DNA from: Iphione sp. A-MEVVRFRX5
Lineage: Eukaryota
Length of the DNA stretch: 64,000 bases
Direction of reading: 5' to 3'
NCBI GenBank assembly: GCA_976226885.1
Contig: OZ320322.1
Coordinates: 47,988,001 to 48,052,000 of the forward strand
Positions 6,156 to 30,911 of this stretch are shown here, piece by piece; position 1 is the stretch's first letter; every line of letters begins with the position of its first letter. The notes beneath the pieces were generated by a model that ran no database searches, was not told the origin of the DNA, and was given only the letters and a program-made list of their open reading frames with translations. A program made the position numbers and the translations under genes.

Positions 6156-6879
6156 GTATGTGTATATGTATATATACAGATGTATATATATGTAGTCACT
6201 GTGACGTCACGTGTATCTGTGCGCACATAAATAAACTGATGATATACAATATCATTAGATTATTGAGTCCCACAACGTATATTCGTATGTTTGGAGGAAG
6301 TTTAGAAATTACTACAAATAGGTTACTAGATCCGAACTGTATTGCTCAAAGGTCATCATCGAAAGGGCGTTGATGGTTTTAATTCTGGAGGTTCAGTGGA
6401 AGCTGCCCGTTGATAATTTGAAAAGAGTCTGTTTCTTTTTTGTAAAAGTTAAATACACGTACGTATCGAAGGCAGTTACAGAGAGGCGACATGGAGTTCT
6501 GCTTCTGTGCATCTGACGGACAAATCTATGATACGCCCTTTTTTTCCCCACGGTTTTGATCATTTTGTGGGTATATGTCCTTGTTAGATCTGCATTGTTC
6601 TGAGATGTAACTTTAGCACCAGTAGGTGAGTGTGTGTAAGTTTAGATATGACGCTGCTATTTGTATTAAATCGTAAACACCTGTGTGTACATCTTGATAT
6701 AAAGTGATGATTACATTTCGCTGCAAAATAGTGATATTGATGCTATCCTAGAAGATATCTATGAGACAAGATTCATTAATAAATTTTGTCATCTAGACAT
6801 AGTATGGTTCGCGTTATGCAGGTTATTGGATGAATATTATGAGAATTATTCAAACAACAAAATCATTTTGCTGCTATTA

Positions 6880-7310
6880 ACGATTTGATTTTTTTTACGA
6901 TAGTTGGCTGGATATTGTATGAAGGGTTGAGTTTGGGGAAGGGGTATCGATTTGCTATGAAAGCTGCAGTTGACTTTCTGATCTTTTCTACAACTGTTGG
7001 CTAGATGTTGCATAAAGAGGTGAGGTGAGGGAAGGAGTATTAGTTTGCTATGAGAGGTGCCATTGACGATTTGATCTTTGCTAAGACAGTTGGTTTGATG
7101 TTGTATGAAGGGTTGAAGTTGGGGAAGGGGTATCAGTCTGCTATGAGAGCTGTTATTGACGACGTAACCTTTCTTAAAATAGTTGGTTTGATGTTGCATA
7201 AAGAGTTGAGGTTGGGGAAGGAGTATCGGTTTGGTATGAGAGTTGTCATTGACAACTTGAGTTTTGCTAAAACAGTTCGCTTGATGTTATATGCAGAGTT
7301 GAGGTGAGGG
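6880..7310. repeat. 93-bp minisatellite, ~5 diverged copies
   Basis: gttggYTRgatRttgYat recurs at about 6904, 6997, 7090, 7182 and 7276, giving 31-aa periodic ORFs on both strands. Confidence 0.85.
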
Positions 7311-8339
7311 AGTTACATATAGACTAATTGTCAGTATACGACAGATTGAAGTCATGTATAGATTAGTTCTCAGTATTCAATGGTTGGAAAGTAGTCACAT
7401 GTAAACTAGCTCTTAGTACGCAGTAGATTGAAATCACATGTAGCGTTGGATGTGACACATAGGCCAGCTGGTAGTACTTAGTAGGTTGAACTCATATGTA
7501 GATCAGGTTTTGCCGACTGGTCATCTATTATTAGTAATCACACAAAATGCATAATATTCCAGTGTTTATGTTTTATTTCGTTTGCACTGTGGTGTTACAT
7601 AAGAACTAGTCATGGAAAGATTTAAAATATTGTATATGTCAGTTGGAGAGGTGTCCTGCTTTCTATATCATTTTTTTCTAATCCTCTTTTGTGTATATTC
7701 TCATGTACATGTGTATATGTATGTATTAAAGGACTATTACTATCAATACCTTTCTGTTTGTGTACAGTTGTTTAGGGTGGAGGAGTCATGGGTTTATATT
7801 CTATGTACAAAGGTAATACAGATAAGACTTGAATACATTTTTCCTCTTCTCACATATACTTTATTGGTTTGTAAAAGGGTGATCATTTGTACTGTGTTCA
7901 CTTTGAACTTAATCACATATAGAGGAGATCGATTTTCAAGCGGGTTGTATATGTATTTGTATTTGGCTTGGCGTGTATGATGTTTATGTGATTGGCGTAG
8001 GGGTTAGGGAGGGGGGGGGGGGAGATACCTATAGTTTATTTATTTGTTTTCGGGTGTATTAAGTAGTACCAGCGAACTGTAAAATATACGAATAAACGTT
8101 GTTATTAAGATATTGTAGAATGTTGTGTATCATTAAATAGACAATGGGTTCAAATATAGATGAACCCAATAACGACCCACAATCAACGATCAAAATGGCA
8201 GTCTATATTTTACAGTATGGCCGGTGTTTAAAATGGTGGTGTTTCCGTATGGCTGCGAGCTCGACCGGATATATTGAGAGATCATTTCGATCATATCGAG
8301 GTGATCACTTTGAATATTAAATTGTTTGCTTACCATTCA

Positions 8340-9250
8340 CAGTGATATTAGTATAGGTGTCAATTGTTTTTGATAGAATAGTAAGGAAAGCATTATGCGT
8401 ACATATATTGTATAATTTAGTAGAGTCTAGTATATTATGGTAATATCAGTATAGATGTTATCTGTTCTTGATAGCAAGCAGGGCGTTTTTGGTATATGTA
8501 CTATACCATTTAGTGCAATGAGAGACATTTACAGTAATACTAGTATAGATGTTATCTGTTTATGATGGTAAGCAAGGCATTATTCGTGTACGTATTGTAT
8601 AGTTTAATAGAATTTTTTTCAATTCTTTACTAAAATATTTATCTATAAATATAGGTCGCGTGACCCCATGGAAGATGGACCTATTGAGTGATAGTAATAG
8701 TCAACATTTTGAGAAGAAGTGGCGATAAAAGTGCTGATCAATTTATAGTGAGGAGGAGTCAGGTATATTTACAGTGATATTAGTATAGATGCTATTTATG
8801 CTTGATAGTAAGCAAAATACATTTACAGTGACAGTAGTACAAATGTCGTCTGCTATTGATAGCAAGTATAGTGTGGTACAGCGAGGTAATTTACAATGAC
8901 TAGTATAGATGTCATTTGTATCTGAAAGTAAAGAAGGTATTATTTGTACATATATTGTGTAGCGTGGTTGAGTCTGGTATATTGATAGTGATACTAGTAT
9001 AGGTGTCATCTGATTTTGATAGGAAGAAAGGTGTTAACTGTACATGTATCGTAGACTAGTATAGGTGGTATTTTTGGTTCGATAGTAAATAAGGCGTTGC
9101 TTGTGTATGCATTGTATTACTTAGTACAATGAGGAATATTTACAGTGATATCAGTCCAGATGTCATTTGTTTTTGATAGTAAGCAAAGCGTTATTTGTGC
9201 ATGCATTGTATAGTTCAGTAGAGTCAGATACATTGACAGTGATTGTGTGT
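8340..9250. repeat. Degenerate ~90-bp tandem repeat array
   Basis: Recurrent agtgatattagtatagatgttatctgtt...tgatagYaagcaa motif. Confidence 0.75.
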
Positions 9251-10095
9251 TCTCGTTTCAATTATTTACTAACGTATCTGTCTATTAATACAGGTTGCCT
9301 GAATCTATGGAAGATGAATTTGTTGAGTTATAGTAGCAGTCAACATTTTTGGAGGAGGTGGTGGTAGAGGTGTTTATCAGTTTATAAGAAGGAGGAGTGT
9401 CCATCCAAACTGAAATTCCTTGTAAGTATTACATCAGTTTGTTTTATGGTCTTGAATGTGGGATAGTATGTTATACAAAAAAATTATATAGTTTGATGAA
9501 TAGTTTATGAAATGTTTCGTTATCAGATAGAATGATTTCTGTGTATATTCCCTTGACTATGTAGACTAAGGAGATGTATTCATTAGTTCTGGATATTAAG
9601 AGTTGGCGTTGGACGTGAAATTAGAATTGATGGTTTCTCTTCAATTTTTGGCTGCCGTTTTCTTTCTGTGCTAGGTAAACGTCTCTGATAGGCGAATTTC
9701 GACTGTGTGTAGAAGACAGTTGGATGGTCTCTTTCTTATATATCATTTTTAATATAATCTTTCTCAATTGGTGAAGCGTCTCTTGCAGAGATGGAGTAAA
9801 TGAATCCAAGAGATGACACGAGTGATGAAACCAGAGTCAAAGATTACATATTATGATACAAGATCATTTAGTTTTAAGGTCGAAGTGTAGGGTTAGAGCT
9901 TTAGTAACTTGCAAACTTAATGGATGTTACACAGGTATACCTCTCTTAATAAGATAGATATATTTTTTGATGTTATGTCGTGCCAACAATGTCTCATATC
10001 ATTATTCATTTGTTCTAAAAGAGAGATATGTTGGTGTTGTTTCTCTTTCCAAAATATGAAGGAGGGAGTATATCTTACAATCTCTATTACTATAG

Positions 10096-11751
10096 ATGCA
10101 TGATTGGTCACATATGGAAGACCATTTCTTCAAGTGCAAGCATACTGATTGTGGCAAAGTCTTCACCACCAACTACGGTCTTAAGTCATACACATGAGTA
10201 CATGCAAGGGAGAAGTCCTACCGCGGTTCCAAGGACGCCTGTAACAAGGCTTTCAAAATCTTTAGCGATCTGTAGAAATACATCCGGACGCATGTACGTT
10301 TATTGTAGGTTTTTCTTCCTAGTATGTCTTTCTGTTGCTTATTAAAAAGGTTTATTGTTCTCGATTTTTAAAGGCTTCGTAACTATATAGGAGTTATTTG
10401 TATACATACTAGAGGGCTTAAGTGAGATTTTTTCAACAGCTAGAAACTGAGCAACAACAGTGAAAAGAATTTCTATTGCTTACAAAGCCATGATAGTTTA
10501 ACCGTTGTTACTAAATCAAGTGTTTATAATCTGAAAGGGTGCATATTCTATTGGGACGAATGTTAAGAATGATATTGCAGTTTGATAAATATGCTGAGAA
10601 ATAGGTATTTTCATACGCATGTATAATTATAGTGGAGACTATATTCATGCGCACTAAGTATTTGAATATTTGTGATTTATGAAGTGACCGCATTGATATT
10701 TAGGTGACGTTTTTTGGGGAAAATGTGACGTTTCGATTTCTAAATGGACTATACAACGGTAATCATTCAGATGCCGAGCTCTTTTGGAATACATTTATTA
10801 GTAGTTGTGTAGACATGGAAGTTATCTCTTTATGAATATTTTCGATCTTTATAGTGTTTTCGTTACTATTTACACCCTTTTTTTTCCAAAATACGTTTAA
10901 CATTTAGGCGAGTGGTCTTTCAAGTGTTCATTCTAAGGCTGTGATCGGTCTTTCACGGGGTTTTGCATCACTTCAAGCATATGTAAAATGTATATTTGCA
11001 TGTACACTGGTGAGTGATTCTACCTCTGCGAGGAAGGTGGCTGTAATAAGGTTTTCACCTCGGTCATTAACTACAAGAATCACATTAAGATTTACACTAG
11101 TGAATTTCATACGAAGACGAAGTGGTTCATTTAATTATTATATGTTAGATGTGCATTTACGTAAGAATAGTGTGTGTAGTGTGGATAGGATCCAACAGTC
11201 ACTTTTCTTCAACAGAGGATTTAATTTGTATACACAGTGTATACGTACACATATATATATACATACTCGTATATGACATCAAATTTGTTTCTTTATCAGT
11301 ACATGTATTTGTTGATGTGAATGATATAGAATATGAAATGAAATTTTCCATCATTGTTATGTTTTACGAAGATTTATAGTGGATAATACATGTATTTTGA
11401 TTAAATGGTAATACTAGCCATATATAGGTATATAACATATTTCAACTGTTGTAGGTGAGAAGTGGTAACCATATACAGGTATATAATACATTTCTATTGT
11501 CGCTGGTGAGAATTGGTAATCATGTATAGGTATGAAATATATCTCGATTGCTGTTGATGAGAATTGGTAACCATATATAGGTATATTATGTGTAGCTTAA
11601 CTGCTACTGGTGAGAATTATTAATTATATGCAGATTTATTGTATGTATATTAACTGTTGCAGGTGATAAGCCGTAACTATATATAGGTATGCATATGTTA
11701 TATACGTGTATTCTAACTATCGTAGGTAAGAAGGCGTACGTTTGTATAGTA
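10096..11751 (+). pseudogene. ZNF143: ZNF143/ZNF76 (Staf)-like C2H2 zinc-finger pseudogene, intron-containing; exons ~10096-10293, 10908-11099, 11726-11751
   Basis: Exon 1: HDWSHMEDHFFKCKHTDCGKVFTTNYGLKSH, frameshift, HAREKSYRGSKDACNKAFKIFSDL*KYIRTH. Exon 2: EWSFKCSF*GCDRSFT....TSSICKMYICMYTGE*FYLCEEGGCNKVFTSVINYKNHIKIYT. Exon 3 start: KKAYVCIV. These align consecutively with ZNF143 fingers as recalled (YGLKSH, SGDLQKHIRTH, TTSNIRKVH, ASATNYKNHVRIHT, GEKPYVCTV). AG/GT sites flank the exons. Confidence 0.88.
11405..11735 (+). repeat. ~52-bp minisatellite (~6 units) built from a splice acceptor plus first exon codons
   Basis: Units end in YTaactgttgYag-gtgagaag; the last unit runs into the zinc-finger exon start gtaagaaggcgtacgtttgt. 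Confidence 0.75.
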
Positions 11752-13699
11752 GTTTTCATTTAGAATTCTCCTCATACACCTTTTTTTTAAACAGTAAAGT
11801 AGTATCACAGTTACATATAGAGTGAAGGTAAATGTTTTATGTTGAGAGCTTTTATTTTAACTTTGGTACATGACTGATAGTTTGTTAGTGAGTAATGTTG
11901 TTTTTATGACATCTATTACCAAACTAAGCTATAAAGGTGGGTAGACTGCTTACGACTGGATCCACTTGAAAGTGTTATTTTGACCTCTTTGCTAGGTGTT
12001 TCCTATCTAATTTGACTTGTATCGCATAGGTTTTCTAATGATATGGCTAGAATGAGTTGTTGGAGTACTTTGGTGCTGTTGTGGGTATAACTTTGTATTG
12101 GTGGTCACAGGTGATTCTAGATAGTCCTTCTAATTAGCGTGTATTAGTTATATTTTACTTTGCATGTACTACTATTCGTATACTGTTATGTGTTATGTGC
12201 AATAAAAACTCATAAAATGACATTTTAGTTATATGGTATTTTATATGAATAAATAGTGGAATGAATAGTAGTAGTGGCAGTGAATAGTAGTAGTGGCAGT
12301 AGCAATAGTAGTAATGAAAGATATTTTAAATCAAGTGTTGTATTGTAGTAATTTGAAGTGTGATTTTGGGTGGTGAATCTGTGCAAAATATATTTGAATA
12401 ACAATTAGAAATGTGCTATTTTAGCTATAGTATATATTTCTCTGAATGGAATGCCTTTTAATTGCTTCAGCTTTGATGTCAAGTATGAGATAGGATGAAG
12501 AAATCAAGATCAATTTTGTTGGTTGGGTTCATTTTGCGAAGAATATTATAGGATTCAAGTTAAGTTGTAATAAATTAGGTGTAGAAAAGTATATAGTAAA
12601 GATGAATATCTTATGTTAGTGTAAATAATTTAAAAACCATGGGAATTATTGTGGATAGTAACTTGTGTGTTGTTAATATAAGTATTCTAAAGTGGCCTTT
12701 CCTTGGAGATCTTTTGTAGGATTATAGAAAAATATTTTGATCTTTGAGCTTGGGATGATCTTAGGATTTTTGGGCTGATTTCAGAGGTATTGTATTGAAG
12801 TTGAGGCAGTTCGAAGTATCGCTTTTATTGTATACATAGAATTGTAATTGACGAAAATCGTGGTGGTGGTGGTAGTAGTATGTACATATAAGGAAATATT
12901 TTTGAAAAGGTCTCGATGCTAAAATCAATATGATTTATTCGTTTAAATTAATATAACAAATATATAAAAACGTTGAATGCTATTTTCTATCGAATTTTTA
13001 TGCTTTATACAGTTATGTTTCATCCTTTAATTTTGATTATGTTTTGTGTATTTTGTGAAAGTATTAGAATCAAAATTCTATTAATAATAGTTTACGTTGA
13101 ACATATACTGGAATTTGATGGAGAAAACTAAGCATTGGAAGCTTACTCTAGAGAAGGAAATTTCTAAAAATGACGTTTTTGTGTGTTCATAATTGTATAT
13201 ATTAATAAGTGTATTGTGTAAACAATGTATCTAAGAGCTTTTACAAGAAGTTGTCGCAGAGTAAATTCTATATTGATGTAACTACATACGATACTATAAT
13301 TGTTGCCTTCGGTTATCAGGAGGTGTTTCGAAAAGAAACCAGACAATGAACGCCGCGCTTCCGCAGAGCATTGTATTACCTCGAGTTTCTTTACTATTAC
13401 ATTGATAGATTTAGGTGTTGGATTAGTGGTTTAGTTGGCACTGGCCCAGTGTTTATCTGCTATTAGATATTAGGTTTCAGTTTGAAAAAAATTGAATCGG
13501 ATATCATTGACGTCAAGGATCAGATGAGATTTAAGATCACTTATTTAGAGAGATGTGTTAACAGAAGGTTATATATGTATGGTATGATTGTAGTGCGCAT
13601 TTGATTACAAAACACCAGATTTGTAAGGAGAGAAGGATATGTGTACGCGTGAGAGAGAGATAGAGAGAAAGAAATAGTTTTCATACTACGCAAAAGAAG

Positions 13700-14960
13700 A
13701 TAAGCGGTATTTGGTACTAGGAGCTGTTTCGGAAATGAGATGTTGATGACGTCGATTGGGAAGAATAATTAACGGTTTGTTGTATGTGAAGATAACTTGG
13801 ATATTTGAGTGACGATGTTGTTGGTTGTATTGTTTGGTATATTGAGTATATAAGATTGGAGGTGTGACTGGTTGGTTGAATTTGCTCTAACTGTTGGACA
13901 TTATAATGCTGTATTGCCAATTTTCGAAGAATACAGGTTGAATCGGCCCTGATGTGTAGTGTAGTAATTTGTGCTACACTTGTGTTCTGAAACCACGAGT
14001 AGGATTGGTCAGATACATTGAATTTTATGTAGGCAATAACAAAGTAATTCTTTGAAGGTGAGATCGCAGAAGAGGCGAGTCACTACGTTGTCTACTCGTC
14101 ATATTTTGTCAAGGAACGAAAACCGTTATATTAACGGTTTTGGATACGGTGAACGAGTTACTACGTTGTCTACTCGTCATATTTTGTCAAGGAACGAAAA
14201 CCGTTATATTAACGGTTTTGGATACGGTGAAGTTGGTTAACGGTCATCACGGATGTATTGGATTGGCTGGTGCGTTTTTTGCTGTTTTCTATGAAGTTAG
14301 GTTTCCTCAACATATTGAGTGGGACCTATTGACTGGAAGGAGTGTGGTGACTTAGTAACGAACGTTTACTAGACCTATTGAGTCTAAATGTTGGAAGAAC
14401 GAGTTGCAAAAAGAAGAAAAACAAGGCTGGCCGAGGATACTAAAGTGTTTGTGATGGGATCGGTTAACAATGTTGGTGAAGAAATGGAAATTCGGAAGTA
14501 GTTTGCAGTTATTGTCTGCTAAGATAGGCAGGACATCAGACGTGACATTAGAGTTTGAGGTTTTATAGAGTAACACTGTCGTGTATGGTGACGCTGTCTT
14601 GCTGTGAGTTGAAAATTGACTCTAAGATTGATTGGTGAAGGACGTGAGCATCGTGCGATGTAGCCAATCAATAAGTGTTACATATTATTTCTTTTGATGT
14701 ATGGGAGAAGGCCAAAGATTCTATTGACGTTAATGCTGTGTCATTTGAAAGGATATAACCATGCAATGGTAAGCGAATGATTGGACGTGCTGAACGTGCT
14801 GGTAAAGATATTTTGGAATACAGTGCAATATATTCAAGATCCATGGGAATTAAATTGGGAACGACTTGAGGCACGTGTGTGACGACAGGAAGCTCAGCAA
14901 AGGAATACGAGGATATGGCATCGAGAGTGGAAACACTTATTTAGCTTGTATGCATGTAAC
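13700..14960 (+). pseudogene. Decayed coding-like region of unknown family
   Basis: Protein-like frames broken mainly by stops derivable from CAA/CAG/CGA, e.g. YGRRPKILLTLMLCHLKGYNHAMVSE*LDVLNVLVKIFWNTVQYIQDPWELNWERLEARV*RQEAQQRNTRIWHREWKHLF and MLEERVAKRRKTRLAEDTKVFVMGSVNN. Confidence 0.4.
14076..14231. repeat. 78-bp tandem duplication containing a perfect hairpin
   Basis: Two copies with one C/T difference; each contains AAAACCGTTA-TAT-TAACGGTTTT. Confidence 0.95.
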
Positions 14961-15163
14961 GTTATCGTATTGTTATTCAGAATTGAAAGTTGTCGATTGC
15001 ATTGTCTATTTATTGTTTTGGATTAATTCTAAGACGTATTATATGTGGGTAATAGTTGTTTCACTATTATTGTCGGCATATAATAGTAATCTTGTGCATA
15101 GTGTTATTTGCGTGTTATATACTTTAATATAATTCTAATTAAATGTGTGACTAACTTAGTTAA

Positions 15164-16030
15164 GTGGCATATATCATGGGAGAAGTTAATTTGGGGGAGA
15201 CAGATGTTTGGCAGTTAGCTCGACGAAGCAAATATTTCGAAGCTTTGTTGCATTATGATGATAGTAAGGAGGGTAGTATCTATGAGTTACCGCCAATATT
15301 AGATAAAAGAGAGTATACAGAGGTTTTGAAGATATTGGGGTCAAAAATTAGTGATGAAGAGGTGACTGCAAGAATATGGGTTTGTATGTGGGAGTCGCAA
15401 GCTAGTAAATACTTGGAGTTTCTTAATTATTTTGCATGCGACAAATTGTTTGAGTATTTATTAGAATATGGTATAGTTCATCAGCCAGCACAAGTGCATG
15501 ACTTTTTGGGAGAGGTTTTCGAGTTATATGGTGTGGAGAGTCCTCGTGGTTCTCTTGCTCTTAGTTTTTTTACAAAATATGCTGGTTGTTCAGTAGAAAA
15601 TCTACTTCAAAAGATTAAAAATCGTGAAGCTAATAGGGTATTTTCAAAAGGTAAGATTCGAACCGTAATACGAAATATTGAACGAAGCAAACTTCCTAGA
15701 AATAGGAAGAAAACCACAGTGTGTTGTATTTGTGTGAAAGAAATAGTATATGTGGAAAAGTCTAGATGGCGCGTTAGACAGGCAAGCCGTATGCCGTGTT
15801 GTGGTGTAATAGTACATGGGCAATGTTTTTGGAGTATGGTGGATGCTTGGGATGGATGTCCTAAATGTGGGACTATGTTTGAGGTTGATGGTACCATGTC
15901 TCCTGGTGTCGATCTAAGCTTCTATCATGTATTGGCACGAGAATCGCTTAGAAGAGAAGGTATAAGACGTGAATGTCGCGAAGCCGAAGGTATACCTCAA
16001 GAGGCTATAATTCCGACGCCACCGCGATAG
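15164..16030 (+). CDS. Intact ORF: N-terminal BTB/POZ-like domain plus C-terminal RING-like zinc finger (putative ubiquitin-ligase component); first ATG at 15176
   Basis: LARRSKYFEALL...E.SIYELP..LDKREYTEVL...ASKYLEFLNYFACDKL follows the BTB pattern. CCIC-x21-CC-x4-H-x2-C-x10-CPKC resembles a RING. ATCATGG is a good Kozak context, and AATAAA lies downstream near 16309. Confidence 0.7.
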   Translation: MAYIMGEVNLGETDVWQLARRSKYFEALLHYDDSKEGSIYELPPILDKREYTEVLKILGSKISDEEVTARIWVCMWESQASKYLEFLNYFACDKLFEYLLEYGIVHQPAQVHDFLGEVFELYGVESPRGSLALSFFTKYAGCSVENLLQKIKNREANRVFSKGKIRTVIRNIERSKLPRNRKKTTVCCICVKEIVYVEKSRWRVRQASRMPCCGVIVHGQCFWSMVDAWDGCPKCGTMFEVDGTMSPGVDLSFYHVLARESLRREGIRRECREAEGIPQEAIIPTPPR

Positions 16031-17475
16031 TGAGTTATGAATGTTGGAATACCAATTTCAAAATACCAATTTCAAAATTTTATGTATGTGTATGTGCGTG
16101 GGGGGGAGGGGATGCATTTTTTTCGCGAGTCAGTCTACAATATAGTGGTTTAGGTGTGACTGTGAGTATACGTGTTTATGAATGAATGTGTGTGTATGAA
16201 TTCTTATGCTTAGTTGTTTTGGTTTTTCTTTTATTTTTAGATGAAGTTTGCTGAGTTTATCTATTGTGAAAGATTTTTATTGAATTTTATATTAGACTAC
16301 AAATAGGAATAAAAGGAAATCTATTAAATTGTATAGCTTTTCGTGGAGATTAAAAATTGTGCAGGAGTTTGTGGTCATATTGATACACCTGGGAAATCAG
16401 TCTTATATCATTGAATAAATCTATTTTTCCATAGGTATAGTTATATTTTGAAATAGCTCAAGTATGTATTTTGCAAAAATCTATTATGACTACGTATACC
16501 ACCTAAGAGGTTTATTTTATAGTATATGTGGATGTAAAAACTAATATATTTGTATATCTGTAATTGGTGGAATATCATTGTTTTGTGAAGAAGCATGTAT
16601 TCTATCAAGAATTAGAATTGTATTCAAATTTTCTTTTGTTATTGAGATATGTGACTACGTACACTATGTTGCTTTATAGTGAATCAGTTGTTAAGTAAGA
16701 TTGAGTATATTAATCTTCTCGCTCTTTTGACTTTTTTTCATCTAGCTTATTTATTGTTTTCCTTTTTTTGGTTTGACTTTTGTTAGAGTTAGATATGTAT
16801 ATACTAATATTTACAAGCTAAATTTAGATTAAGGATATGTTATCATAGAAGGTTATTTAGTGAATTATGAAATTTTTGTTATTTATTGTTGTTTGTGAAT
16901 ATTAGATTGATTATAAGTGACTATTTCTATATGAGTTGTTCAATGTGTACTTCTATCCTTAGTGGTAACCTTGTGAATAAACCAGTTAGTTCGATCATCT
17001 CTATCAAGTATGTAGTATTGTTGTTTGTTTCATCACATAAACGTTGACATTTAATTTAAATTCGGAAAGATACAACATTTATGTATAAAGGAAAATATGA
17101 AATGTGTCAACGCTAAAGTTATAAGAATCGTTTGATTTTAATTTGATTAGAATAAATGGTATAGGTAGTGATTGACTAAAAAAATAAACGGGTTTGATTT
17201 ATGATGCTGTTTTAGGATACATGGGTATGTAAAATGTGCTGAGTTATGTGCTAAATAATAATATTAATATGTATGAAATACTACAGTTGCGGCATTTCAT
17301 ATAGACGGAATACAAGTGTTTGGTGATTAAGAGCAAGGAATACAGCAGTATCTTCCAAACCAATGAATGATTGCAATGATTTGCATTTGTGATATAATTA
17401 CTTTATATGTGAGCCACTTTAGAATATCAATTGAATCATATGTCTTGAATAGAATTGTTTTCATGTGGATTTCAG

Positions 17476-21840: not shown

Positions 21841-22929
21841 CTTCAGTGTAGAGGAGGCCGTTCCTCAACAATTTTTGGAAAAAATATATTTCAGAGAGGG
21901 AGATGTGGAGTTCCCATGATGCTTCTTAGAAGCAGGGGAGAAGGGGGAGAGACTTTTCAGTGTCGATAGGTGGAGGGTGGGATGGGATGAGTGTGGAGGA
22001 GTTGACAGGAGGAGGGGGGGAAAATTGGGGAAAAGAAGGAGGTGACAGATAATGGTTCGGTCCCTGCACTCTGACAACTATGAGGTATACAGGCTCATTC
22101 TCAAAATTAAGAAGAAAGGGGTGTCTTTTGCTGACTTCATATGTCCTTGATTTTGGAAAAAAAAGGTTGGTTTTCTCAGTTCATAGACGTTTCACAGAGA
22201 AAGGGGTGTTTTTCACTTAATCGGAGTAATGGTTAGCCGTTACGGGTCCATGGGGGTTGCATGGTTTCGACTGTAATAGGTATTTAAACTGGAAAGTATT
22301 TTGTATTTTGTAGAATACATAATAAAACGAAATTTCGTTTTGTGAAGTATGAGAAAACATTTCTTTGTTATAAATAGTAATGATAGGGATGATATATATT
22401 TGTTAATATTAAGATATCTAGACGAAATGTTTCTTACTGTATATCGTTTTGGAGAATATAAAGTACGAATTTTTTTAAAATTTAGATTTAAGGTGAACTT
22501 GTAATATGTCGCTGTCTATCAGTAATGTCTACATGTCAAGCGTAAATTATATATATAGTTATGGTATAAAATATTTTTTAAAAAATAATAAGGTAGTACT
22601 TCCTTAGGTGAGGCTCGAAAATTCGTAGTATTTAATTATTGTATTTATTTGACATTTATGTAGATGAGTGAAGTTAAGGTATTACTATGACATATGAAAG
22701 CTAAAGAATGTAGTGAGTGGTTTGAGAAGTTCTATGGTGTTTAGGGTTTCATAATGATAAAACATTAGGCAGCGATAAGAGCCATGTTTTCATTATCATT
22801 TGAAGCATTCACCTTAGAAGTGTTCTTTCTTTACAAGAAGATTTAGCGGTAAACTAGATTTGCATAATTAAATAGTTCATGTACTCTTGGTGAGTTTATT
22901 TGAGTAACGAAAAATACAAATAAATAGTA

Positions 22930-25216
22930 TGTATATATGGAGATAGAGATAAGGAGTGTGTAGGAAAGGGATTGAGGTAAAAAGCGTTTGGATATGAAAC
23001 TATGGTAAGGAGAGTGTGTGGATAAGGGTCAGACAAAGAGTATGTAGGTAAAGTATTTAGGTAATGAATGTATAATGGAGTAATTGAAGTAAGAAGTGTG
23101 CATATAAGAGACTGATGTAAGTAGTGTGTATGTAAAAGATAAGTAAGGAGTGTGTAGATGAGGAACTAAAGTTATTAGTATATAGATGAGGGACTGAGGT
23201 AAGTAGTGTGTACATAAGTAATTGAAGTAAATAATATGTAGATGGGAGATTGAGGGAAAGAGGGTGCATATAAGAAATGGAGGTAAGGAGTGTGTAGATG
23301 AAAGGCTGGGGTAAGGAGTGTGTAGATGAGGAACGGAGGGAAGAAGTGGGAAAATGAGGGGGTATAGATGAGTAACTGACGAAAGGAGTGAGTAAATGAA
23401 GGATAAAGGAAAAAAGTGTGTAGAAAAGGGATTGAGGGCGGGAGTGTGTAAATGAAAGATAGAGGTAAGGAATGTGTCGACGAGGGATTAATGGAAGATG
23501 TAAATGAGTGGTAAGGAGTGTGTAGACGAGGGATTGATGGAAGAAGTGTAGACGAAGAATCGAGAAAAGGGGTGGGTAAATGAGGGATAGAAGTAAAGAG
23601 TATGTAGATGAGAGACTAGAGGAAGGAGTGCGCAAATGAGGAACAGAGGTAAAAAGTGTGTAGATAAGGGACTGAGGGCGGGAGCATGCAAATGAAAAAC
23701 AGAGGTAAGGAGCGTGTTGGTGAGGGATTGATGGAAGATGTAAATGAGAAATAGAGGTAAGGAGTGTGTAGGCGAGGGATTGATGGAAGAAGTGTAGATG
23801 AGAAATCGAGGGAAGGGATGGGTAAATGAGGGACAGAAGTCAAGAATATGTAGGTGAAAGACTAGGGGAAGGAGTGCGCAAATGAGGGACAGAGGTAAGG
23901 AGTGTATAGATAAAGTATTGAGTGATGGACTGCAAATGAGGAACTATTGAAAAGAGAGGGTAAATGAGTGATAGGCGTAAAGAGTGTGTAGATAAGGGAC
24001 TTAGATAAGAAATGTAGATGAGGAATTGAAATAAAAAGTAGGATTGGATAATTTGTTATATTTCGTAAAAAAGGTATAACAAAGAAATTTAAAAATGTAA
24101 TACCTTTCTTTAGCTTTTGATTCATTTAATGTTAAAATAACATTGATTTGCGACAGAGACATTAAGATAACTTTCCCTGGGTATTCAGCTCTGAATCAGA
24201 GTATCATATGAATATTGTATAGTGGAAATTTATAGATGAGTGTGCAAATGACGATGAGGGGGTATAGATGAGTAACTGACGAAAGGAGTGAGCAAATGAA
24301 GGACAAAGGAAAAAAGTGTGTAGAAAAGGGATTGAGGGCGGGAGTGTGTAAATGAAAGACAGAGGTAAGGAATGTGTCGAGGAGGGATTAATGGAAGATG
24401 TAAATGAGAGGTAAGGAGTGTGTAGACGAGGGATTGATGGAAGAAGTGTAGACGAGGAATCGAGAGAAGGGGTGGGTAAATGAGGGATAGAAGTAAAGAG
24501 TATGTAGATGAGAGACTAGAGGAAGGAGTGCGCAAATGAGGAACAGAGGTAAGGAGTGTGTAGATAAGGGACTGAGGGAAGGAGTGGGTAAATGAGGGCC
24601 AAAGGTAAAAAGTGTGTAGATAAGGGACTGAGGGCGGGAGCATGCAAATGAAAAACAGAGGTAAGGAGCGTGCTGGTATGGGATTGATGGAAGATGTAGA
24701 TGAGAAATAGAGGTAAGGAGTGTGTAGGCGAGGGATTGATGGAAGAAGTGTAGATGAGAAATCGAGGGAAGGGATGGGTAAATGAGGGACAGAAGTCAAG
24801 AATATGTAGGTGAAAGACTAGGGGAAGGAGTGCGCAAATGAGGGACAGAGGTAAGGAGTGTATAGATAAAGTACTGAGTAATGGACTGCAAATGAGGAAC
24901 TATTGAAAAGAGAGGGTAAATGAGTGATAGACGTAAAGAGTGTGTAGATAAGGGACTTAGATAAGAAATGTAGATGAGGAATTGAAGTAAAAAGTAAGAT
25001 TGGATAATTTGTTATATTTCGTAAAAAAAGTGTAACAAAGAAATTTAAAAATGTAATACCTTTCTTTAGCTTTTGATTCATTCAATGTTAAAATAACATT
25101 GATTTGCGACAGAAACATTAAGAAATGCGACAGCTTTCCCTGGGTATTCAGCTCTGAATCAGAGTATCATATGAATATTGTATAGTGGAAATTTACAGAT
25201 GAGTGTGCAAATGACG
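22930..25216. repeat. Purine-rich complex satellite including a ~0.9-kb tandem duplication (23354-24253 / 24254-25216)
   Basis: Recurrent aaggagtgtgtagatRag units; paired ORFs offset by 956 bp at the right end. Confidence 0.9.
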
Positions 25217-26120
25217 GTGGATTCAGATGGAGTGTAAAGATGTAGGTATGGATTAAACAAATAAATCGTAAATAGATGAAGATATAGATATCAAGGCATT
25301 CTGATGAAGCGTATATTAGGAATATATAGATAACGAGGGAGGAATATTAAATAGAGTATGGATGAGGAATTGATATATAAGGACTTAAAACAAAAAGTGT
25401 GTAGACAATGCCGCATGACTCGGGGGGGAGGGGGGGGGGGGAGGGAGGGGAAAGAGAGAATCGTGTATAAGTATAGACTGTGCACTTTGGTTTGTTGTCT
25501 AGGTTTTATGGTATGCTTTGGCGAACTCTTACTATAGAATTTATTGAATTGTGTGAATAATGAATACAACAGAGAAGATCAGTAACAATATGTTTATTTA
25601 ATATATGGGGTATACATACATGTAGTTATGCATGCGCTAATATCTGTTATCATAAAAATGTCTTTCTATGGTATCCTTTTATATTAATTGATTTCAAAAA
25701 AGAAATTATAGGAATATAATAGTATTACTTCCCTATAATTATTGTATTCATTTAACATTTATATAGATAGGTGAAGTAAAAGTATTGCTATTACATATAG
25801 GTTTGGTTTTCTAGTTTGCTGAAATTATTCGCTTTTTGTGTCAAGTGAAATTAGTAACATATTTATTGAATGAAACGTAATCTATTGGTCATCATTAAAT
25901 ATTGGTCTATTTTTTCCCAGTTCTAAGAGGGAGACGTTTCCGATGATTGTTTTTTTCAGAACTAATACTTAGTTGAATGATGAAACATGCCAATTGAGGG
26001 GGGGTATAGATTTCAAAACATATTTGTTAGAATTTGACCGTATAGTGTGTTATGCTAAGCGTTGTTAAAGTATGAAAGTAATTATCGTTGGGATGAAAAG
26101 ATATATTGATAAGTATACAT

Positions 26121-26663
26121 CTATGGATGCGAAATATATTGTGACAGTGAATAGGATTTTCGATCCACAAGTTCTTTTATGTCCTGATAGAAATCGGCGC
26201 TGATTACGTTGGCTAAGGTTAAAAAACCTTGTAGAATTTGGGGGTCAATGTTGTATGGCATTCGTTTATTGCTATTGATGTTTCTGTTGATGTTTTTATT
26301 GTAAATCGAAAAATTGCCTTGTGGTGTTGTTGTGTTTGTTTTGTCTCGTGGTGTTTCAGTAGAAGGTATGGTTACGTAATTGCCACTTGGTTTGTAGAAT
26401 GAACGGTTTTGTTGATTTGATTTGTTGATTTCGTTACTTTTGATAAAGGTGTCTGCAGTCATTTGTGTTGTAGTTGCTTCTTTTTGTGTCATTCTGCCAC
26501 GCAATGACTCTGGATTACAAGAGTCCGTTTGTATTGCCGACTCTAGTTGAGGAATACCTCTGAGTGGTTTATGATTGATCATACTATCGTGGCTGCTTGT
26601 ATTTTTAGTATCAGCATTCGCTGTTCGTGCTGCGATGACAACTCGTCTGTCAGTCTGTGGTGT
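26121..26663 (-). CDS. Candidate terminal coding exon of the IRF gene (180 aa, Thr/Asn/Ser-rich)
   Basis: Acceptor ttatttttcAG at 26664-26665 opens a phase-0 frame TPQTDRRVVIAART... that continues through ORF 26121-26582 to the stop. Linkage to IRF is inferred. Confidence 0.45.
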   Translation of the reverse strand, partial: TPQTDRRVVIAARTANADTKNTSSHDSMINHKPLRGIPQLESAIQTDSCNPESLRGRMTQKEATTTQMTADTFIKSNEINKSNQQNRSFYKPSGNYVTIPSTETPRDKTNTTTPQGNFSIYNKNINRNINSNKRMPYNIDPQILQGFLTLANVISADFYQDIKELVDRKSYSLSQYISHP

Positions 26664-27482
26664 CTGAAAAATAATTCAATTTGTTAATTACTTTATTATT
26701 ATAATATTTGCCTTCATATTTCATGAATACTGGTTAGAAGCTAGCAGTGGTAAAATAAAGAGTAGAGAAATTAGTTTTGCGGAGAATTTTACTTTTTCTT
26801 TGGATTTTGCTATGAAAGTAGGATTGTCTATTAGATTCATGTGGTTATCATGAGAAAGTAATAATTATGATTTTTTCCATTTATTATCATTTCCGTTACA
26901 ATATGAAGTATTTTTATGTTATAAGTGTATATGTGAGGGATAGAAAATTAAACATTGTTGACGATTTTCGTGATAGGTAAGTGTGATGGAAATCAAATGG
27001 TTGTGATTCATTAACGAATAAAGATTTAGTATAGATTTGGTATCAATTATATTAGATGATCTTTGTTATATATGGTGGACTTTGGATGAAATATACTTTA
27101 TGAGTAGTTTGATAAGTTTGAAAAACAAACCTCGATTACGTTTTCAAGTGGTGCCTTTTGGTTGCATTCTATTTCAATATGCGTGATAACATCTGGAATA
27201 GAAATAAGTTATCAAAGCATTGGTTAGGTTTTTTTGATCTATTACACAAATTAATGGAATCAAATGATAGGAAATCCTATCATATAATCGGAGTTTGATA
27301 TCAATAGTGATTCTAAAACATTTGTTAAACAGATTCATTTGTATTATAGGGTCTTTTGTCTATGTATTTTTTCGTGTGTGTTCACTTAAGAGGAACATAA
27401 TTGCTGTTAGATACGCCTTGTTTAGGGGACTATTAGTTTAGTTCAAGTACCCTCTTTGTTGTTTCGCGGCTTGATTTCATAC

Positions 27483-27682: not shown

Positions 27683-28149
27683 CTTTTAGTTCATAATATG
27701 ATTAGTGAAACAGTTTTCTTTCAATACATATGTAGACTAACGATTCTTATATATATTTTCTTGCCATTTCATCAATAGTTTCTGAATTTCAATTTATAGG
27801 TTAAATATTAAAGTGAGGACAATTCGTTGACGCATAAATGAACAAAATTTTTTACATAAGCTATGTCAGTATGTTTTTAATCTATAACACGTTCTAAGGG
27901 TTATGTGTTCAAAATACTAACATTTAAAAATTCAAATTCGGTAGAACTGGAGAAGCATAGAATTTGTATGATATTTTGAACTATATATTTAAGTTTTTTT
28001 ATTTATATCTATCAAATAAGGTGGATGTTGTTGGATAATACTCATGTATAGGTGAGTCTGCTCTGCCTATAGATACTAACTGGGGTTTTCGCTTTGATAA
28101 AATACTCTTGGATACATATATATATATGTAGATATAAAATTACACGTAC

Positions 28150-28330
28150 TTTTTCCATTTGGTGTGAACATACAAACTTTATAGGGATTATCCCCCTCTA
28201 GATCTGAAAGACCTTTTAGTTCTATAATATCAGAACATTTATTGATGGCGGCTCGAAAACGCGCTTTCCACTTCCCCCATTCTACTTTGTTCAGATCCTG
28301 GTGATATTTTCCTGTATATTGGGACCACTT
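28150..28330 (-). CDS. IRF: IRF DNA-binding domain, second exon
   Basis: ttttaacAG|KWSQYTGKYHQDLNKVEWGKWKARFRAAINKCSDIIELKGLSDLEGDNPYKVCMFTPNGK|GTACGT. Contains the fifth Trp, the recognition helix and the PYKV motif. Confidence 0.93.
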
Positions 28331-28896
28331 CTGTTAAAATAATAAGATAATTTATTACAATGAATATCACTGTAGAGTGGAAGAAAAGTAATGCAAAATA
28401 TGATGGGTGAGTTTTAATTTAGATGAGATATGAATCTCAAGAGATCAAAGTACTACATCTTTGTGTACATGCATATACGTAAAGTTTACTATTTCAATGA
28501 TTTGCGTAACATGGCTATCTAAGGAAAATGGATAAATTCAAAGAGTCACATTTGTATTTTCTAGTTTATGGTATCAATTTATTGTAAAAGTAGTTTTAGT
28601 TGAGTTTATATAGTAGGTTAACGTAAACGTGTTTTAGTGGTTTCATTTCAGTGGGTTAAATTTGAGCAATTAGGTGCGTAAACAAGTGAATTTGAATTGT
28701 CAGTTGAAAAATATAGAAAAAGGTAAGCATTTATAAATTTCAGTTGAGTTATTACTGGCAACGTATATACAAATGGTATTGTAAATCAAGTTAAGATATT
28801 TTTCACTAAATAGGGTCAATTAATAGGTACACCATGCAAGATCTTTGAATTTAATAGGGAGGAAGGGGGGGGGGGGGGGGGGGGGGTTGTACTAAC

Positions 28897-29064
28897 CATA
28901 TATATCTGTGCATCCTGTACAGACCAACCCTGCTTTGCACCATCTGGCCATGGAATGCAGAAGATTCCTTTTTCTTGGTTTATCCATCGAAGTCCTGGGA
29001 TATCACTACTGTTCAGCTTGGATATTAGCCACGGCTTCAAACGGCCACGACTTATATTTCCTGG
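28897..29064 (-). CDS. IRF: IRF DNA-binding domain, first exon
   Basis: attcAG|PGNISRGRLKPWLISKLNSSDIPGLRWINQEKGIFCIPWPDGAKQGWSVQDAQIYM|GTTAGT. Four of the five IRF tryptophans; phase 0 at both ends. Confidence 0.95.
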
Positions 29065-29406
29065 CTGAATATGTGTTGTGTAGAAAGAAAGATAGGTAAT
29101 AGAAACAATACAATTGTAAGTTTAGGGTAAAAATGTAAGAGTAATTAGAGTTATTATTTCATTAGTGAGCATAATGGGGGATTACATTTTTGTCGGTTGA
29201 TTAAATTCGTTTTCGGTGTTTTGTTGTTATTTATAAATCTACGTGTTTTCTCCTTTGAAGATTTTTGTTAAACTTTACGTACTTCCCAGTGTATAGCTTG
29301 TTGCATAAATACAAATGTTCAAAGTAATTAATGTGTTTTTTTCGCCTTCCTACATATACATATATATAGTTTCATACGGTAGTGTAGTCAATTATTTTCA
29401 ACTTAC

Positions 29407-30015
29407 GGATTCTGGTGTTGATGATGAAGGAATTTGTGCGATTGATGATTTCGAATGCCTTTCTTTGGGAGAAGATGAATCATTGCAGGTTTGTGATGTC
29501 TTTCCCATGTACAACAAGTTATCTGAGTTTACTACAGTGGGGATGGCGAGAGATGTCTTGTTGAGCTGGCGAGTGGGAATTGTGTTGACGACTGGAGCTA
29601 TTGTTTGAGTGAGGAGGGGCTGGATATTGGTGTCAACGTTATTTGATTTTAATGATATTGGTACGAGGCAGATATTTGCACGGGATGAGTTCGTAGGCCT
29701 GATGTTCGTTCTCAAGGAAGTAGGATTTTCGTTCAAGGAAACCCTCGATACATTTTCTTCTGTTTTAGAGTTTTTCGGTGTATTCGTAATGACGTAAGTG
29801 TTGTCTTGGATAGGTAATTGTATGGCCAGTTTATTTGTCATGATGGGATGTGATTTAGAGGTTTCTGTAGAGTTATAAGTTGGTGTATAATGTATTGAAG
29901 AGCGGTCAATCTTAATTCTTTTTGGAGCGGGAGGAGAGACTTCTTCTGAGACTTGTTTCACAGGGATTATTTCTATGGTTCCCAGCACTTTAGAGTTATT
30001 GTGTGATTTAATCAT
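29407..30015 (-). CDS. IRF: First coding exon of the IRF gene: 203-aa S/T/N/P-rich N-terminal extension with NLS-like PAPKRIK
   Basis: ATG at 30015 with an in-frame upstream stop; ends GAATCC|GTAAGT in phase 0, matching the next exon. Upstream acceptor at 30104-30105 and a further donor at 30839-30844 suggest a non-coding first exon. Confidence 0.72.
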
Positions 30016-30911
30016 GATGAAGAAAGTGAAGACAATTGGGATGAGATGTGGATACCGTGGATTATATTATTCTAAATATTTCCTCGTAGTTATGGAGATA
30101 TACCTAAATGACCGGCAATAAAAAAACAAAGAGTAATTGTTAAACATTATGCATTACACAAAAATTGTAGAGTGAATGTTGGAAAATTCGTGATGATGGG
30201 GGATATCTGTAGTAATTAAAAACGAAGAAATCGAATGTTATTCAAAGGTAAGCGATTGATAAAATAGGAATACCAATCAATAGTAAATCAAGTAGAATGC
30301 AAATTAATAATAATTAAGTATGAGGGAAATGTATTTATATAATTGTGTTATCTAAGTAATTAAAATGTGAAACGTGTATTTATGTTGCTTTTACTAGAAC
30401 TGCTATCAAACATAGATAATGAAACGTTGCTGTTCTGACATTATGTTATTTCATAGAAATTCATTAGAAATGGGGAAAAATAGGAAATGTAGTCATTTGG
30501 TACTGTTTTATTGGTAAAGGTCTATTGATGTTTTCTTAAAGTATCAGTTTCTTTGCTATAATATAAAGATTTTGAGGAACTAGTATATGCGTATGTGGAA
30601 TATGTACAATATTAAGAGGTGTTCTTTTTAGTATATATTTTATATACGAAGTTATTCTTAAATTGGGGGATAATGTAAAGCAGTATAACATAGATAATGC
30701 ATGAATGATGTGGTAATATTACAATTTGGAAGAAAAGGAAAAAAAGTATTGATTAGATTGTGTGTTGTGAACGTTAGTGAGATCTAATAAAATATATGAA
30801 TATGTTTATGGGTAGTGAGTTATGAAATAATTAAAAATACTTACAGCGATAGGAAGTATAAACTCGTATTTCAGTGTGCAATTATCTGCAAATGTGTAGA
30901 CGTTTTCCGTA

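Follow-up and report, generated by a model that had tools for sequence, protein, structure and literature searches.

An accessory gene of an env-bearing Ty3/Gypsy retroelement, probably of ubiquitin-ligase type, retained within a giant Helentron of Iphione sp.

The ORF4 gene and its predicted protein

The stretch of DNA analysed here (the window; 64,000 nucleotides of contig OZ320322.1 of Iphione sp. A-MEVVRFRX5) is occupied throughout (1-64,000, +) by the interior of a giant Helentron of the HLE2 type, and carries at 15,176-16,030 (+) a gene of 284 aa derived from the fourth reading frame (ORF4) of a Gypsy retroelement. The 288 uninterrupted codons reported in an earlier note on this DNA were found again as a stop-free frame at 15,164-16,030 (+); DNA of the local composition would yield such a frame by chance with a probability of 1.5e-11 per start point. 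The first ATG lies at 15,176 and is preceded by an in-frame stop. Because the place of this ATG is common to all three retroelement subfamilies described below, and because many distant homologues have their initiator Met just ahead of the same S-x-Y-F motif, ORF4 is, judged from its sequence, a complete 284-aa coding unit and a real gene, not a host exon. The earlier note had taken a branch-like motif and an AG just upstream as signs of a spliced terminal exon. The motif, TGACTAAC, is indeed present at 15,148-15,155, but the exon reading was not supported: the next AGs follow the branch A by only about 4 and 10 nt, no pyrimidine tract was found between the motif and these AGs, and the ATG is conserved.

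The predicted protein opens with a minimal BTB/Skp1/Elongin-C-like core that appears to lack an N-terminal dimerisation arm (residues 5-109; 15,176-15,490, +; AF2 model and VIA structure search), followed by a helical linker (residues 111-179; 15,494-15,700, +) ending in a conserved S-x-x-K-x-R-x-x-x-R helix, and by a RING variant of the form C-x2-C ... CC-x4-H-x2-C ... C-x2-C (residues 187-235; 15,722-15,868, +; profile matches). The AF2 model has a mean pLDDT of 90 and a pTM of 0.67, and the match of residues 5-109 to the BTB superfamily agrees with the BTB-like N-terminus proposed earlier: BTB/POZ, Skp1, Elongin C or T1 chains make up 29 of the top 30 rows of the VIA search, the best of them (NAC1 POZ, rmsd 3.0 over 88 residues) at Z 7.2-7.3, where the tool's trust level is Z 8. 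No BTB match was obtained for the protein in a Pfam search, and Foldseek returned nothing for the model at E 0.001 or better.

In BTB domains of the ZBTB type, the N-terminal strand and helix form the classic dimer interface. Since residue 4-5 of the model aligns only from residue 40 of PLZF, 38-39 of BCL6 and 36 of NAC1, this strand and helix are absent from the ORF4 core as modelled, which in that respect resembles a bare Skp1/Elongin-C-type core. The BTB-mediated self-dimerisation suggested earlier thus runs against the predicted anatomy. A homodimer prediction made without use of the alignment (score 0.00) spoke neither for nor against it. BTB-BACK chains, including the Cul3-bound vaccinia protein A55 (6i2m), were aligned over 120-135 residues at Z 5.5-6.9, and the helices after the core are placed as in a 3-box/BACK, with an rmsd of 5-6 Å.

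Among 1.84 billion representative sequences, 30 matches at E up to 0.001 were recovered, mostly of 250-330 aa and 23-39% identical; P0016, a CUB-repeat protein and a spurious member, was excluded from the alignment (A1), as were the short fragments P0020, P0029 and P0030. A cluster name is carried by only one of the 29 looked up, and it reads 'hypothetical protein'. Word-indexed homologue searches gave no additional relatives, and single-protein scans gave no loci for the outside homologues, whose alignments are too divergent for a locus search. The CC-x4-H-x2-C core of the atypical RING, also noticed earlier, is conserved across the 27 aligned sequences: C187, C190, C213, H218, C221, C232 and C235 are invariant in all 27 and C212 in 26, so that variation at the eight putative zinc ligands is almost absent. 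The profile matches are to the RING domains of HRD1 (E 1e-5), Pirh2 (E 2e-4) and AMFR (E 8e-4), and all top sequence matches of the region are catalytic E3 RINGs; by structure, the RING matches 6f98 in Foldseek (probability 0.96, E 0.34), and a single-sequence model of it reached a pLDDT of 43, too low for use.

When aligned with HRD1 and Pirh2, ORF4 has no ligand-4 His of the RING-H2 (C3H2C3) type, Val or Ile standing in its place, and the adjacent cysteines therefore probably supply zinc ligands 3 and 4. Such adjacent cysteines ahead of the fifth ligand, supplying ligands 3 and 4, are also found in the RING of RBBP6. The profile match to an RBBP6-type RING (3ztg) is weak (E 0.59); the fifth ligand there is Cys rather than the His of ORF4, and the flanking domains differ. 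Ile189, by the first Cys pair, is aliphatic in 22 of 27 sequences, and the equivalent position faces the E2 in canonical RINGs. A cationic linchpin after the last Cys is usual in catalytic RING E3s, though not universal among active RINGs; here the position is Gly236, with Arg in just 2 of 27 homologues, and the position of the usual RING Trp is variable among the 27.

The parent retroelement and the Helentron carrier

At least 73 matches to ORF4 were found in the genome, the search counts being lower bounds. Genomic context was inspected for 29 of the 73, covering 26 of the 27 near-full-length copies besides the three of the window type. In 23 of these 26, the gene stands between env and the 3' LTR of a unit with gag, pol, env and an LTR pair, and env sequence lies near ORF4 in all 26; the paired LTRs are at least 98% identical in 22 of 24 cases. 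By Pfam, pol has the Gypsy order protease-RT-RNase H-integrase, while env, read in translation, is a 694-codon frame with a furin-like site and a hydrophobic anchor, whose Pfam match to Baculo_F (E 8e-5) is weaker than the curated cut-off. In an env-bearing Ty3/Gypsy family, ORF4 is the accessory fourth gene and sits past env and ahead of the 3' LTR. Of the host-derived and viral origins offered earlier, the viral one has thus been borne out, and the paralogue search, with its LTR-gag-pol-env-ORF4-LTR units, shows the frame to be what the earlier note had named as contrary to its own proposal, a transposon ORF.

Three subfamilies of the retroelement were distinguished, between the active members of which ORF4 has a dN/dS of 0.12-0.16. 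The window gene is sister to one of them at 74% identity (tree support 100/100); six of the 26 copies failed an open-frame-plus-motif filter and were left out of the dN/dS set and the tree. In the nearest subfamily (e.g. L060 and L062), a T-tract with an AG stands about 43 nt ahead of the ORF4 ATG, which suggests a spliced subgenomic RNA; it is not obvious in the other two subfamilies.

The carrier measures 236,357 bp (G000:C22:47,947,193-48,183,549, or -40,807 to +195,549 relative to the window). A second copy of 228,910 bp lies 15 Mb away on the opposite strand (near C22:32.82-33.05 Mb), and a third of 156,270 bp (C2:18.25-18.41 Mb) lacks both termini as well as about 64 kb of internal sequence; identity among the three is 99.1-99.9%. 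The two full copies start and end exactly at the Helentron termini within unrelated flanks. Subterminal inverted repeats of 12 nt mark these termini, with a hairpin at the 5' end (z -7.1) and a stem-loop at the 3' end (z -2.8); TT stands at both ends in the two full copies out of three. A search for the empty site gave no informative paralogue, one flank being unique and the other having partial old matches only. The transposase, a RepHel-endonuclease ORF outside the window (window +143,152 to +149,655), encodes 2168 aa with Herpes_teg_N, DUF6570, Helitron_like_N, PIF1 and endonuclease domains, includes an HUH Rep, the PIF1 helicase and also a deubiquitinase-like domain; it has kept its full length in each of the three copies. 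That ORF4 originated in a Gypsy retroelement and is now carried by a giant Helentron can be regarded as practically certain.

The 5' end of the Helentron is a high-copy repeat, with 835 first-look candidates of which 40 were scored. Among six sampled short non-autonomous copies (L148-L153), the 5' end is present in all and both ends of the giant element, about 0.95 kb apart, in two. At least 14 other RepHel-related matches were found, none near an ORF4 match, and Helentrons therefore do not need ORF4. Further open Helentron transposase frames, 2136-2162 aa long and with Rep regions that are 70-74% identical, were observed at C11:15.40 Mb, C1:173.5 Mb, C4:48.85 Mb, C15:19.3 Mb, C1:32.16 Mb, C13:26.4 Mb and C10:78.3 Mb. 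A second RepHel family, on C4, was sampled about 65 kb and 205 kb upstream; it has no sequence in common at either offset, and thus no sign of giant size there.

Over 154,682 sites common to the copies, private changes on the transposase strand comprise 227 C>T against 110 G>A (p = 3e-16), mostly outside CpG, and the two better-polarised copies have 87 against 43. This strand bias would fit deamination of an exposed single strand.

Apart from its transposase, the interior, as judged from 60 of its 95 long frames, consists mostly of nested transposons together with exons of IRF, ankyrin and C2H2 type. Two captured exons of an IRF DNA-binding domain, with their intron, lie at 28,142-29,073 (-); their paralogue (L094) is a host-like locus on C11, to which the intron is 70-79% similar, and long open frames at 29,398-30,066 and 26,121-26,675 may be further exons. 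IRF as a maintained cargo was rejected for exon 1, which lies 13 kb from ORF4 and looks neutrally decaying, its changes being spread evenly over codon positions (15, 11 and 13 of 59). Ankyrin-repeat exons occur near the 3' end of the Helentron (L119:7920-8297 and 9159-9596, +), possibly forming one captured gene with the long frames L120:7050-7862 and L121:121-816 (+), and a C2H2 zinc-finger exon is located at L043:6878-7294 (-). A SOCS-box impression from an ORF near the right end found no support in Pfam. Furthermore, diverged inverted duplicates (71-75%) link window 9,000-11,700 with about -16,000 to -27,000, their translations differing as one-strand C>T change predicts. Tandem arrays were seen at 22,900-25,220 and 6,870-7,340 of the window, one of 28-bp units with an extreme G-over-C skew of 0.6-0.75 and one of 93-bp units. 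Polinton-like PolB and endonuclease-VII fragments are arrayed in tandem at L100:2096-8341 (-), one copy with an ATPase-like frame, and the 64-kb deletion of the Helentron copy on C2 ends at this array.

Erosion of the provirus and selection on ORF4

Beside ORF4 lie the remains of a dead provirus. An integrase relic at 14,649-14,909 (+), closest to the same Gypsy subfamily as ORF4 and used as a neutral-decay control, is putatively linked to the gene by adjacency, orientation and best match. It is followed by an eroded env-ORF4 spacer (14,967-15,175, +), and past the stop codon by a polypurine-tract-like relic (16,098-16,112, +) with no LTR after it. A fragment of a second, high-copy Gypsy family at 13,679-14,543, in which 46% of C has become T, served as a further control for local erosion. 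Relics of gag, env or the LTRs of the ORF4-bearing subfamilies were not found in the whole Helentron carrier. The parental pyrimidine tract, AG acceptor and LTR promoter have been lost from the window copy, which would have to be expressed by another route.

The state of the integrase relic agrees with the earlier description of neighbouring coding relics as broken by stops: it has three in 87 codons and keeps 35 of 84 residues (42%), where the same segment is 81-86% identical between active subfamilies, and its dN is 0.40 against 0.08 between them. In the local DNA, 46-50% of C has turned to T, the spacer standing at 50%. ORF4, by comparison, keeps 210 of 284 residues (74% identity) with no stop. 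Measured against five copies of the nearest subfamily, its dN is 0.14-0.15 and its dS about 1.18, and the resulting dN/dS of 0.12-0.13 is that of purifying selection. The erosion has nevertheless reached the gene: C>T change affects 51 of 72 third positions (71%) against 8 of 55 second positions (p = 1e-10), and third-position T>C only 5 of 62. At second positions, C>T is found at 11 of 24 sites in the integrase relic against 8 of 55 in ORF4 (p = 0.004), and change of any kind at 26 of 84 against 31 of 284 (p = 5e-5). The frequency of C at four-fold sites is 0.07 in the window ORF4 and 0.08 in the Helentron transposase, compared with 0.22-0.26 in active ORF4 copies. APOBEC-type retroviral hypermutation was considered and rejected, the bias being C>T on the sense strand and not G>A.

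Neutral matrices from the local DNA, which also contain divergence from the retroelement phase, predict 13-18 stops in ORF4, with a probability of no stop of 1e-7 to 1e-9. At half the rate, eight stops are predicted (P = 1.6e-4), and the predicted amino-acid identity then equals the observed 74%. Taken by itself, the difference in stops (0 of 284 against 3 of 87, p = 0.013) carries modest weight, and the three Helentron copies of ORF4, with one synonymous difference only, offer too few changes to gauge current selection. Because ORF4 was spared at second positions and stayed free of stops while the integrase relic decayed, the protein has very probably been under purifying selection after capture, under the mutation pressure of its carrier; the survival of the frame in an eroded region, remarked on in the earlier note, would accordingly reflect real selection.

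Interpretation and comparison with known systems

On balance, ORF4 is probably an accessory Gypsy gene kept in a Helentron, likely encoding a ubiquitin-ligase-type protein that would blunt host silencing or restriction. A Gypsy provirus copy would have been left inside the 236-kb Helentron, where the rest of it was deleted or decayed and ORF4 was very probably retained under purifying selection. The RING would bind or recruit an E2, the BTB-like and helical part would act as a monomeric module of the Skp1/Elongin-C kind and bind either a cullin or a target protein of the host, and a silencing or restriction factor would thereby be removed, first in the service of the retroelement and now in that of the Helentron, with expression via a new promoter or leader. 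An E3-type function is reasonably probable from the modelled protein, and a benefit to the transposon rather than to the host is favoured to a similar degree. More tentatively, an accessory ubiquitin ligase of retroviral type may have passed from a provirus that died inside the Helentron to the Helentron itself, which may keep it as a counter-silencing gene of its own.

Two alternatives that accept the origin and the carrier are both rather unlikely; they concern different steps and are not mutually exclusive. The protein might lack catalysis and act as a decoy or scaffold that mimics a cullin adaptor and has a structural RING, as the linchpin that is cationic in just 2 of 27 sequences, the missing first RING-H2 His and the alignment of BTB-BACK chains, the Cul3-bound A55 among them, over 120-135 residues (Z 5.5-6.9) would suggest. 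The near invariance of its eight putative zinc ligands, the aliphatic residue at position 189 in 22 of 27 and top sequence matches that are all catalytic E3 RINGs argue the other way. Similarly, ORF4 could be a host-domesticated gene, a passenger in the Helentron with selection arising from host fitness: selection continues without the retroelement, other RepHel families do without ORF4, and the element holds further host-derived pieces (IRF, ankyrin and C2H2 exons). Yet all three copies of the window version sit in recently moved Helentrons, no fixed non-mobile locus was seen among the at least 73 matches (29 inspected for context), and the C-poor third positions fit a long stay in the Helentron.

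The remaining explanations are less probable still. It is improbable that the copy inserted recently from a fourth, unsampled subfamily of the retroelement, so that its conservation would date from the retroelement phase only. Such an origin would accommodate the similar dN/dS between active subfamilies (0.12-0.16), the genome search counts being lower bounds and an integrase relic tied to ORF4 through position, orientation and best match; it is opposed by one-way third-position change (C>T 51 of 72, T>C 5 of 62) that is absent from all active subfamilies, by an adjoining non-coding spacer equally eroded at 50%, and by the lack of any gag, env or LTR relic in the Helentron. Quite improbable, too, is a segmental duplication or an assembly artefact of 236 kb that contains Helentron pieces by chance. 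In its favour, other transposons are nested in the interior, one copy has neither terminus and misses about 64 kb internally, and the empty-site test gave no informative paralogue; nonetheless, two copies 15 Mb apart and in opposite orientation are bounded exactly by Helentron termini with unrelated flanks, these termini are common to short non-autonomous elements, and each copy has private, strand-biased substitutions. Least credible of all is the proposal of the earlier note that a host gene for a self-dimerising BTB-RING E3 has its spliced terminal exon here. It can point to TGACTAAC and an AG upstream, and to a model in which the first BTB strands are missing and could come from an exon further upstream, and it is contradicted by a branch-to-AG distance of 4-10 nt with no pyrimidine tract, by an ATG whose place is conserved across subfamilies and many homologues, and by a gene nested in the retroelement tree.

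If the more tentative reading, of a ligase gene taken over by the Helentron, is true, it would be a case of cross-class exaptation between mobile elements, and invertebrate errantiviruses would be complex retroviruses with Vif/ICP0-like E3 accessory genes. The locus provides an internally controlled case of a gene of one mobile element selectively kept inside another element class. The binding partner of ORF4 would name an invertebrate host restriction or silencing factor. In addition, the strand-biased C>T among recent copies is direct and countable, and would be expected if rolling-circle transposition exposes one strand.

Several known systems share individual features with this one. Viral RING E3s include HSV ICP0 and poxvirus p28, and lentiviral Vif and Vpx are functional analogues. 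Vaccinia A55 BTB-BACK (6i2m) likewise is a virus-borne BTB-like module presumed to redirect host ubiquitination. Compared with these viral ubiquitin effectors, ORF4 combines a BTB-like core and a RING in a single chain of 284 aa without kelch repeats, and the resemblance seen is one of fold. The term 'ancient errantiviruses' has been used for env-carrying Ty3/gypsy elements of non-insect animals (PMC13524379), and the parent element is one in that sense: both have LTR-gag-pol-env organisation, an F-type env match and many near-identical recent copies, and the parent of ORF4 differs in that a fourth ORF, conserved across its three subfamilies, follows env ahead of the 3' LTR. The main text of that paper, as far as available, has no RING, ubiquitin, zinc finger or accessory ORF, and its available text supplements no RING, BTB or ORF4 (PMC13524379). 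In bdelloids, LTR retrotransposons have extra ORF3 genes that encode a DEDDy exonuclease or a GDSL esterase (PMC5408684). Like ORF4, these are family-specific accessory ORFs downstream of pol that are shared across unrelated mobile elements; unlike ORF4, they replace env, belong to other kinds of enzyme, with no mention of RING, BTB or ubiquitin in the available text, and are shared among retroelements rather than with a DNA transposon (PMC5408684).

With respect to the carrier, short TIRs and a 3' stem-loop are described for HLE2/Helentron subgroup b (PMC11417382) and for giant Helitrons (PMC6431247), as here, together with TT insertion, with which the TT ends of the two full copies would agree, and the subgroup-b set of DUF6570, Herpes_teg_N and endonuclease on RepHel is that of this Helentron (PMC11417382). 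No description of a RING or BTB-RING accessory ORF in LTR elements, of a Helitron larger than about 40 kb or of Helitron strand asymmetry was found in the open-access literature. ORF4 apparently represents an undescribed accessory gene family, assembled from parts (errantivirus, Helentron, BTB, RING) that are of known kinds. According to the available text of a 2019 review, maize Helitrons reach a maximum of 39 kb, Teratorn spans 41-182 kb, and the capture of whole genes by Helitrons is exceptionally rare (PMC6431247). The Helentron described here, at 236 kb, is about six times that Helitron maximum and has a whole gene under selection aboard, in contrast to the stated rarity (PMC6431247). It would be among the largest rolling-circle transposons, and it places animal Helentrons with Teratorn or the fungal Starships in scale as carriers of cargo.
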